A DNA stretch of 64,000 nucleotides, from the sequence record FJ373894. One strand, given 5' to 3'. Below are positions 48,224 through 48,550 of this stretch, in pieces (position 1 is the stretch's first letter; each line of letters starts with the position of its first letter). The stretch is from Shigella phage Ag3. Under the pieces are notes generated by a model. It was not told the origin of the DNA. It saw only the letters and a list, made by a program, of their open reading frames with translations, and made no database searches. Made by a program: the position numbers and the translations under genes.

Positions 48224-48550
48224 TTATTTGCGCAGGGCAACCACGAGTTCAGCGAGTTCACCCATGGTCGGGTCGTCGCCTTTACTGCCCAGCCAGCCGT
48301 CGTCGATTTCGACCTGAAACTCTTCTTCGAGGTCCATTACGATTTCGATGGCATCCAGTTCATCACCGCCGAGGTCTTTCTTGGTGCGGAGACCAGCCAG
48401 CTTGTCCAGGGCATCGTTGATTACCACTTCGGCATCGACGATCCCTTTGATGCTACTCTTGTCCTCATCACTGACTTCCAGATTCAGATTGTCAGTGGCG
48501 TACTGAGCCAGATGACGCATGACTTCAACATATGTTGGTTTACTGCTCAT
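48224..48550 (-). CDS. acyl-carrier-protein-like protein lacking the phosphopantetheine-attachment Ser
   Basis: 108 aa; DLGGDELDAIEIVMDLEEEF aligns to ACP motif [18 protein letters not shown] but Ser is Glu. Confidence 0.55.
   Translation of the reverse strand: MSSKPTYVEVMRHLAQYATDNLNLEVSDEDKSSIKGIVDAEVVINDALDKLAGLRTKKDLGGDELDAIEIVMDLEEEFQVEIDDGWLGSKGDDPTMGELAELVVALRK

Follow-up and report, generated by a model that had tools for sequence, protein, structure and literature searches.

Partner enzymes of acyl carrier proteins (ACPs) dock on helix II, whose first residue in Escherichia coli AcpP, Ser36, is the site of phosphopantetheine attachment. Non-acylated ACP can dock on client enzymes of E. 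coli and block them. Glycerol-3-phosphate acyltransferase is inhibited more by apo-ACP than by holo-ACP, and growth ceases completely when apo-ACP and 'TesA are produced together (reviewed in PMC3896788). An ACP without the attachment Ser can also serve as a purely binding subunit: in Plasmodium falciparum, the mACP of Fe-S cluster biogenesis has the ACP fold but has lost the phosphopantetheine site and is kept for protein-protein interaction (10.1101/2021.04.13.439690). Small ACP-fold proteins are encoded by phages as well. Those of Vibrio phages ICP1 (Gp97) and helene and of Pseudomonas phage HRDY3 (PHROG 5934) keep the Ser, in the motif DSLD, and could be genuine carriers; ICP1 Gp97 (L016 2438-2755), annotated as hypothetical, is ACP-like and reads CMDSLD at the attachment site. 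In the P. falciparum mACP, the Ser is reportedly replaced by a hydrophobic residue (Phe), and the partner is said to be Isd11/Nfs1.

We compared with these systems an ACP-like gene found in a 64,000-nucleotide stretch of phage DNA, the whole of which we call the window. The 5 kb surrounding the gene are 96.8% identical to Shigella phage ChubbyThor (Ackermannviridae, Agtrevirus) and 88-95% identical to SKML-39, MK-13, Dickeya LIMEstone-type phages and other relatives; the window is Agtrevirus DNA. The open reading frame at 48224-48550 (minus strand) carries the sequence DLGGDELDAIEIVMDLEEEF, which an earlier note, made from the letters of the window alone, had quoted from an acidic ACP-like protein of 108 aa. 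Its product has a pI of 4.18 and a net charge of -15 and is 100% identical to ChubbyThor gp157, a "putative acyl carrier protein", and we use the name gp157 for it here. As that note had seen, the gene lies between a vWA gene and an island of small ORFs.

48224-48550, minus strand: ACP-like coding sequence, identical to gp157 (108 aa, no attachment Ser; PHROG 4154); from the ORF, profile and homology matches and dN/dS.
48555-48562, minus strand: Shine-Dalgarno-like GGGAGAAG, 5 nt 5' of the ATG; read from the sequence.
48593-50794, minus strand: coding sequence of a 733-aa vWA protein (gp158; PHROG 2426) with a vWA and beta-sandwich core and a large C-terminal part; from profile, alignment, model and synteny.

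The gp157 family is already catalogued (PHROG 4154; "acyl carrier protein" in RefSeq). The gene is present with an intact ORF in 270 phage records; its carriers, ~270 sequenced Ackermannviridae genomes, include ViI, CBA120, Det7 and LIMEstone-type phages (Dickeya records). One peptide of the Sajous1 homologue was detected in virion mass spectrometry. Our literature searches (Ackermannviridae ACP, phage ACP anti-defence, Ser-less ACP, AcpP-phage early proteins) returned nothing on the function of the family or on its missing Ser.

Both sequence profiles and predicted structure place gp157 among the ACPs. The PP-binding model of Pfam (PF00550), against which the earlier note had proposed a search, matches gp157 with 25.0 bits (E 2.4e-5), above its gathering score of 20.8 bits, which is a significant ACP relationship. 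PHROG 4154, 'acyl carrier protein', matches over the full length (E 6e-57). When gp157 was searched against PDB sequences, the top match had an E-value of 1.4e-5, and 60/60 of the best 60 of 97 matches were ACPs; hundreds of canonical ACPs were likewise retrieved when the family profile was run against 1.84 billion representative proteins. The NCBIfam ACP models align to residues 53-84 only, with 30-38 bits against cut-offs of 66-106, and the best of these scores, 38.4 bits, lies well below the cut-off of 71 for assignment as an AcpP equivalog or subfamily member. The structure prediction that had also been proposed, an AF2 model built from 28 homologues (pLDDT 81), has helices at residues 7-21, 28-39, 45-52, 64-78 and 96-106. 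In Foldseek comparisons with this model, nearly all of the best 50 of 143 PDB matches and the best 50 of 103 BFVD matches are ACPs (structures in the PDB, phage ACPs in BFVD), with target-normalised TM-scores of up to 0.68-0.83. The relationship of gp157 to ACPs is thus beyond chance, and the description of the gene product as an acidic, ACP-like protein is borne out. gp157 is a member of the PP-binding fold family, yet it falls short of what defines a functional carrier, the attachment residue itself being replaced.

48359-48361, minus strand: codon GAA, encoding Glu64 at the position of the phosphopantetheine-attachment Ser (E. coli AcpP Ser36), residue 1 of helix II; from alignment, family conservation, codons and the model.
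48317-48361, minus strand: helix II (residues 64-78, ELDAIEIVMDLEEEF), the ACP 'recognition helix'; from alignments, the model and conservation.

The replacement of Ser by Glu, first pointed out in the earlier note, is visible in three alignments to Bacillus subtilis ACP chains from the PDB search, in which the gp157 segment dlggdELDaieivmdleeef places Glu64 opposite the Ser of DSLD or a modified residue there. In the gp157 model, helix II begins at residue 64. The substitution extends through the family: all 37 full-length relatives examined, at identities down to 32%, have Glu or Asp at the site, and Ser occurs in 0. Among the 27 full-length cluster representatives (58-96% identity) the residue is Glu in 25 and Asp in 2, and each of the ten distant full-length relatives that a profile search of 1.84 billion representative proteins supplied (32-48% identity; P0029-P0034, P0036, P0038, P0041, P0048) has E or D. 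The codon is GAA or GAT in four other genomes, and the Miltonvirus homologue, a 90-aa protein of Serratia phage Kevin, has LDELD at the site. Unlike the ACPs of ICP1, helene and HRDY3, the Ackermannviridae family never has Ser. We considered whether Ser might be present in the real genome and Glu64 a sequencing error, and rejected this because at least two substitutions separate GAA from every Ser codon and because E or D is found in all relatives, from independent genomes. The closest relative that does contain the Ser, P0044, is encoded on a contig of bacterial origin, with a type I restriction-modification system and ClpB as neighbours; we saw no phage link for this contig.

No other Ser or Cys is conserved in the family alignment. 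A tblastn search for AcpS-type transferases (Sfp-type transferases lie outside its scope) found no homologue in Ackermannviridae records; the query was what we take to be the E. coli AcpS sequence, and as a control it retrieved the annotated acpS of Microcystis phage MaAM05. Lipid or polyketide enzymes are absent among the annotated neighbours of the ACP-like gene. Since every member has a carboxylate (Glu or, in some, Asp) in place of the attachment Ser, the conclusion that gp157 cannot be phosphopantetheinylated in the canonical manner is well supported. The earlier claim that gp157 is no conventional acyl carrier therefore holds, with E or D in every family member, no AcpS found in the phage family, and a fold and profile that are those of an ACP.

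48416-48481, minus strand: hypervariable cassette (residues 24-45), a helical insert in the loop between helix I and helix II; from conservation, allele comparison and the model.
48266-48295, minus strand: family-specific motif W86-x-G-x3-DDPT95, in place of ACP helix III; from alignments and the model.

Compared with bacterial type II AcpP (PF00550), gp157 has the same helical-bundle fold, the same acidity and a near-identical helix II motif, D-L-G-x-D-x-L-D-x-x-E-x-V-M-x-L-E-E-E-F. Helix II is one of the two best-conserved segments of the gp157 family and the one most similar to bacterial ACPs. Residues D63, L65, D66, E69, M72, E75-E77, I82 and D84 of gp157 correspond to D35, L37, D38, E41, M44, E47-E49, I54 and D56 of E. 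coli AcpP and are invariant or almost so across the family. Unlike AcpP, gp157 has Glu/Asp for Ser, a helical insert of ~25 residues in loop I, and a W-x-G-x3-DDPT loop instead of helix III; it also scores far under the NCBIfam AcpP cut-offs, and a cognate transferase was not found in its phage family by the AcpS tblastn. The W86-x-G-x3-DDPT95 motif is invariant within the close family, as are K57, T95 and K108, and the model has no helix from residue 79 to 95. The insert, which canonical ACPs do not have, falls in the least conserved part of the protein: mean conservation is 0.84 for helix I, 0.88 for helix II and 0.88 for the C-terminal part, against 0.58 for residues 24-51, which contain the insert.

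The dN/dS of the ACP-like gene is 0.08-0.22; therefore the gene is under purifying selection and functional. Its product diverges much faster than that of the vWA neighbour, and the divergence includes a localized hypervariable patch. SKML-39 and MK-13 have vWA proteins that are 99% identical (dS 0.06), whereas their ACP-like proteins are 80% identical (dS 0.90). This divergence is limited to nt ~15-240 of the ACP-like gene: codons 23-45 have ~60% nucleotide identity within a kilobase that is otherwise ~100% identical. The two phages are also ~100% identical throughout the vWA gene, in the last third of the ACP-like gene (its 3' end) and in the gene that follows. SS9 and Det7 differ in the same way (vWA 99%, ACP-like 78% identity), and the reverse is seen between the window and Kuttervirus SS9, whose ACP-like proteins are 92% identical and whose vWA proteins are only 83% identical. 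In four metagenomic Ackermannviridae-like contigs, the vWA proteins are 72-80% identical and the ACP-like proteins only 32-47% identical to those of the window. The hypervariable patch lies around 2470-2535 in L100 and L102, and several discrete insert types, distinguished by eye rather than by formal classification, can be recognized in the family alignment and are discordant with the vWA phylogeny. Within the window, blastn and tblastn found neither a donor cassette nor a second copy of the hypervariable region. Judging from these allele comparisons, the cassette is exchanged independently of the adjacent, slowly evolving vWA gene. A constant core with a swapped hypervariable cassette is a signature of a host-interaction gene and not of a housekeeping subunit; fast divergence together with a recombination patch is likewise a pattern typically associated with genes of that kind.

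The surroundings of the gene are conserved. The order Prs, NAMPT, two small ORFs, vWA, ACP-like gene and small-ORF island is kept across Aglimvirinae and Cvivirinae, with Prs and NAMPT upstream of the ACP-like gene and the small-ORF island, which has early-type promoters, downstream; an ADP-ribosyltransferase is part of the island in several relatives. The neighbours of the ACP-like gene are of the host-takeover or counter-defence type. We also predicted regulatory signals on either side of the gene.

48569-48586, minus strand: GC-rich hairpin with a short T tract, between the vWA stop and the ACP-like start; from the sequence and relatives.
48197-48220, minus strand: strong terminator-like hairpin directly after the ACP-like stop; from a consensus scan and relatives.
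48171-48198, minus strand: sigma-70-like promoter TTTACT-16-TATTAT, 5' of the downstream small-ORF island; from a consensus scan.

The intergenic hairpin keeps its position in the relatives L002, L003, L004 and L006 while its stem sequence differs from lineage to lineage in a compensatory pattern, which suggests a functional attenuator or an element of RNA processing or stability. The terminator-like hairpin after the stop codon recurs at the same position in L002, L004 and L006 and is not found there in L003 (the four being distant contigs), and hexamers similar to those of the predicted promoter recur in relatives. According to these consensus promoter and terminator scans, the transcription unit would end with the ACP-like gene, which presumably depends for its transcription on read-through from the vWA gene, its expression timing being deduced from gene order and the scans.

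Further upstream, the window differs from ChubbyThor in its NAD+ salvage genes. A single ORF of 547 aa at 51361-53004 (minus strand) is an in-frame prs-nampt chimera: its residues 1-222 share 99% identity with gp162 of ChubbyThor (a ribose-phosphate pyrophosphokinase of 284 aa), and its residues 220-547 are 99% identical to residues 227-554 of ChubbyThor gp161 (NAMPT). The junction lies at a shared 'FVE', and the deletion of ~870 bp takes away the C-terminus of Prs and the N-terminus of NAMPT; on this account, the salvage pair is probably inactive in the window phage, unless the fusion is an assembly artefact.

The vWA protein encoded next to gp157 has an intact MIDAS (D24-x-S26-x-S28, T97, D127) that is conserved across 62 homologues, at identities down to 27%. 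Its model (pLDDT 88) is a bona fide vWA fold and matches only generic vWA and beta-sandwich proteins (ArnB/Sec23-like, ITIH); a search against PDB sequences gave no significant match. PHROG 2426 vWA proteins are widespread in phages and at times mis-annotated as 'minor tail protein'. Full-length homologues of ~48% identity occur in Straboviridae (Pseudotevenvirus and related ~175 kb phages; L012 3995-6241 and L013 3890-6136), and homologues with 25-30% identity and partial coverage occur in Bacillus and Rhizobium phages.

ACP-like proteins with D or E for Ser are also found in bacteria, where they share with gp157 the D-[DE]-L-D substitution on an ACP scaffold; we know of no characterisation of these proteins. 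Among the 80 GTDB loci that we collected (L019-L098), 44 have Asp and 36 have Glu. Unlike gp157, many of these proteins are exported lipoproteins or fused domains, and they have no phage insert and mostly no DDPT motif. A lipoprotein signal peptide is encoded at no fewer than 26 of the 80 loci, and Planctomycetota or Verrucomicrobiota account for about half of the set; in Streptomyces and Kitasatospora, other members form the C-terminal end of very long ORFs (>1000 aa). Across the 80 loci, no recurrent neighbour family was common to more than five. On an environmental bacterial contig (L018 2844-7346), an ECF sigma factor and a YfbK-type vWA protein are encoded upstream of the D/E ACP-like lipoprotein P0103, at a distance of two genes. 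A further case is L075 5986-6222 (plus strand), on a contig binned as Nostoc sp., which encodes a 78-aa AcpP with ~91% protein and 74% DNA identity to E. coli AcpP. Its Ser36 is changed to Glu, and a split DDE transposase adjoins it. Convergent replacement of Ser by Glu in an ACP, contamination and engineering are all conceivable origins.

These observations led us to consider how an ACP that cannot be loaded might act during infection. As judged from the sequence, gp157 most likely acts through protein binding and not through acyl-chain carriage. Our preferred reading, held tentatively and with rather less than even confidence, is that gp157 is a degenerate ACP turned protein-binding module, probably a decoy for an ACP-binding host protein. 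gp157 retains the helical bundle of an ACP together with the acidic helix II, the docking surface for ACP-dependent enzymes; in the proposed model, the carboxylate of Glu/Asp64 may mimic the phosphoester of holo-ACP. Made during infection, gp157 would occupy the ACP-docking site of a host protein, candidates being factors that bind ACP, among them the client enzymes of lipid or envelope synthesis. Docking would inhibit or redirect that protein, so that gp157 would act as a dominant-negative decoy comparable to toxic apo-ACP in E. coli, and the hypervariable insert may tune its specificity or evade host counter-measures.

The known systems provide partial models for such a decoy. The inhibition of clients such as glycerol-3-phosphate acyltransferase by apo-ACP (PMC3896788) is a mechanistic model, but it is an overexpression phenotype of the host's own protein, whereas gp157 is the product of a dedicated gene. 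Like the P. falciparum mACP, gp157 appears to have kept the fold for protein-protein interaction after losing the phosphopantetheine site; unlike mACP, it has a carboxylate replacement and belongs to a lytic phage. In gp157, the loss of Ser is accompanied by purifying selection and by retention of the client-facing residues of helix II. A decoy, which the earlier note had also suggested, has indirect support from these retained residues, from the inhibition caused by apo-ACP in E. coli, from the host-takeover genes nearby and from the fast divergence and hypervariable cassette of the gene. Two points weigh against the decoy: the conservation of helix II fits binding to a phage protein equally well, and the conserved N-terminal helix and the W-x-G-x3-DDPT motif are without counterpart in ACP-client recognition. 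We regard as unlikely a bolder version of the proposal, in which gp157 is a non-acylatable decoy mimicking phospho-Ser whose constant helix blocks a host enzyme that depends on ACP, or else a factor for ACP sensing or defence, the cassette being the product of an arms race. In a variant of this version, the fixed carboxylate would be the MIDAS ligand of the co-encoded vWA protein in a new vWA-ACP-like complex for host manipulation. Under either form, the D/E-for-Ser ACP scaffold would represent an unrecognised class of ACP-derived binding proteins.

An interaction with the vWA neighbour can also be envisaged without a decoy: gp157 would be the partner or ligand of the adjacent phage vWA protein, with Glu/Asp64 at the tip of helix II completing the coordination of the MIDAS metal and the pair acting together. 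By analogy, acidic ligand residues complete the MIDAS in integrin-type vWA domains, and a partner with an intact MIDAS and a true vWA fold is indeed encoded beside gp157. The order of the vWA gene, a 41-52 nt spacer with a hairpin and the ACP-like gene is strict in all the Aglimvirinae/Cvivirinae-like genomes and contigs that we examined, and in Miltonvirus the two genes still lie close together. The free interchange of E and D at site 64 suits a requirement for a carboxylate, and L018 offers one bacterial D/E ACP-like gene with a vWA gene at a distance of two genes. However, the distribution of the two genes does not coincide, since vWA homologues (502 records, against 270 for the ACP-like gene) reach beyond the carriers into Straboviridae and into Bacillus and Rhizobium phages, and in the two regions inspected no ACP-like gene is annotated beside the vWA gene. 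ACP-like alleles, moreover, swap independently of the vWA gene (78-80% against 99% identity). Probes of limited sensitivity, a phage-vWA HMM and one phmmer query that could miss very distant vWA domains, detected no vWA near the 80 bacterial D/E ACP-like loci, and we rejected a general association between D/E ACP-like and vWA proteins on this count (0/80 GTDB loci with a vWA neighbour; only L018 is suggestive). The comparisons argue against an obligate pair, and we consider it improbable that gp157 serves as a ligand of the vWA protein.

The remaining explanations take the acidity or the database label of gp157 as their starting point. The earlier note had raised a DNA-mimic-type anti-defence protein; in this reading, gp157 would counter restriction or other defences as Ocr and ArdA do, its acidic surface standing in for the DNA backbone. 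gp157 is small and very acidic (pI 4.18, net charge -15), its gene lies in a region rich in host-takeover genes, and the gene evolves fast and has a hypervariable cassette. Yet genuine E. coli AcpP has the same net charge; therefore the acidity is inherited from the ACP fold. The conserved part of gp157 is the ACP recognition helix residue for residue and not a periodic charge pattern, the structure matches include no DNA mimic (among the best 50 of 143 in the PDB and the best 50 of 103 in BFVD), and the PADLOC defence models gave no significant match to gp157, only noise at an E-value of 0.011; we judge a DNA mimic very improbable. Slightly easier to entertain, but still quite improbable, is a carboxylate-rich cation-binding or chaperone-like acidic protein without ACP partners, which might for instance buffer Mg2+/Ca2+ or escort a basic phage protein. 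Outside phages, D/E-for-Ser ACP-like proteins turn up repeatedly, among them lipoproteins that Planctomycetota and Verrucomicrobiota export to sites without ACP enzymology, so the scaffold has been recruited for non-carrier roles several times; but the bacterial proteins share no conserved gene neighbourhood that points to a function, and the hypervariable cassette is left unexplained. Finally, gp157 could be a carrier loaded through an unconventional residue or chemistry, or a functionless, decaying relic. The label 'acyl carrier protein' in databases and the invariance of K57, T95 and K108 in the close family would suit the former, but Ser or Cys is conserved nowhere in the family, no phosphopantetheinyl transferase homologue was found in the phage family by the AcpS tblastn, and the NCBIfam ACP models stop at 30-38 bits against cut-offs of 66-106. 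A relic is contradicted by the dN/dS of 0.08-0.22 and by the finding that the ORF is intact in 270 phage records. Both possibilities are scarcely credible.

Ser-less ACP paralogues are known in principle; what is new here is a phage family with a fixed carboxylate at the ACP attachment site and a hypervariable loop cassette. The database label "acyl carrier protein" names a function that gp157 almost certainly cannot perform, and an auxiliary metabolic role deduced from that label would be wrong. Beyond phages, the exported bacterial D/E ACP-like lipoproteins suggest that non-carrier reuse of the ACP scaffold is commoner than appreciated. The gene is carried by ViI, CBA120, Det7 and LIMEstone-type phages, which attract interest for therapy and biocontrol, and its localized hypervariable cassette marks gp157 as a likely determinant of host interaction. 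If gp157 does act as a decoy for ACP, the ACP interactome could be probed with it directly, and it would represent a new route by which phages disturb host lipid or envelope metabolism or another ACP-dependent process.
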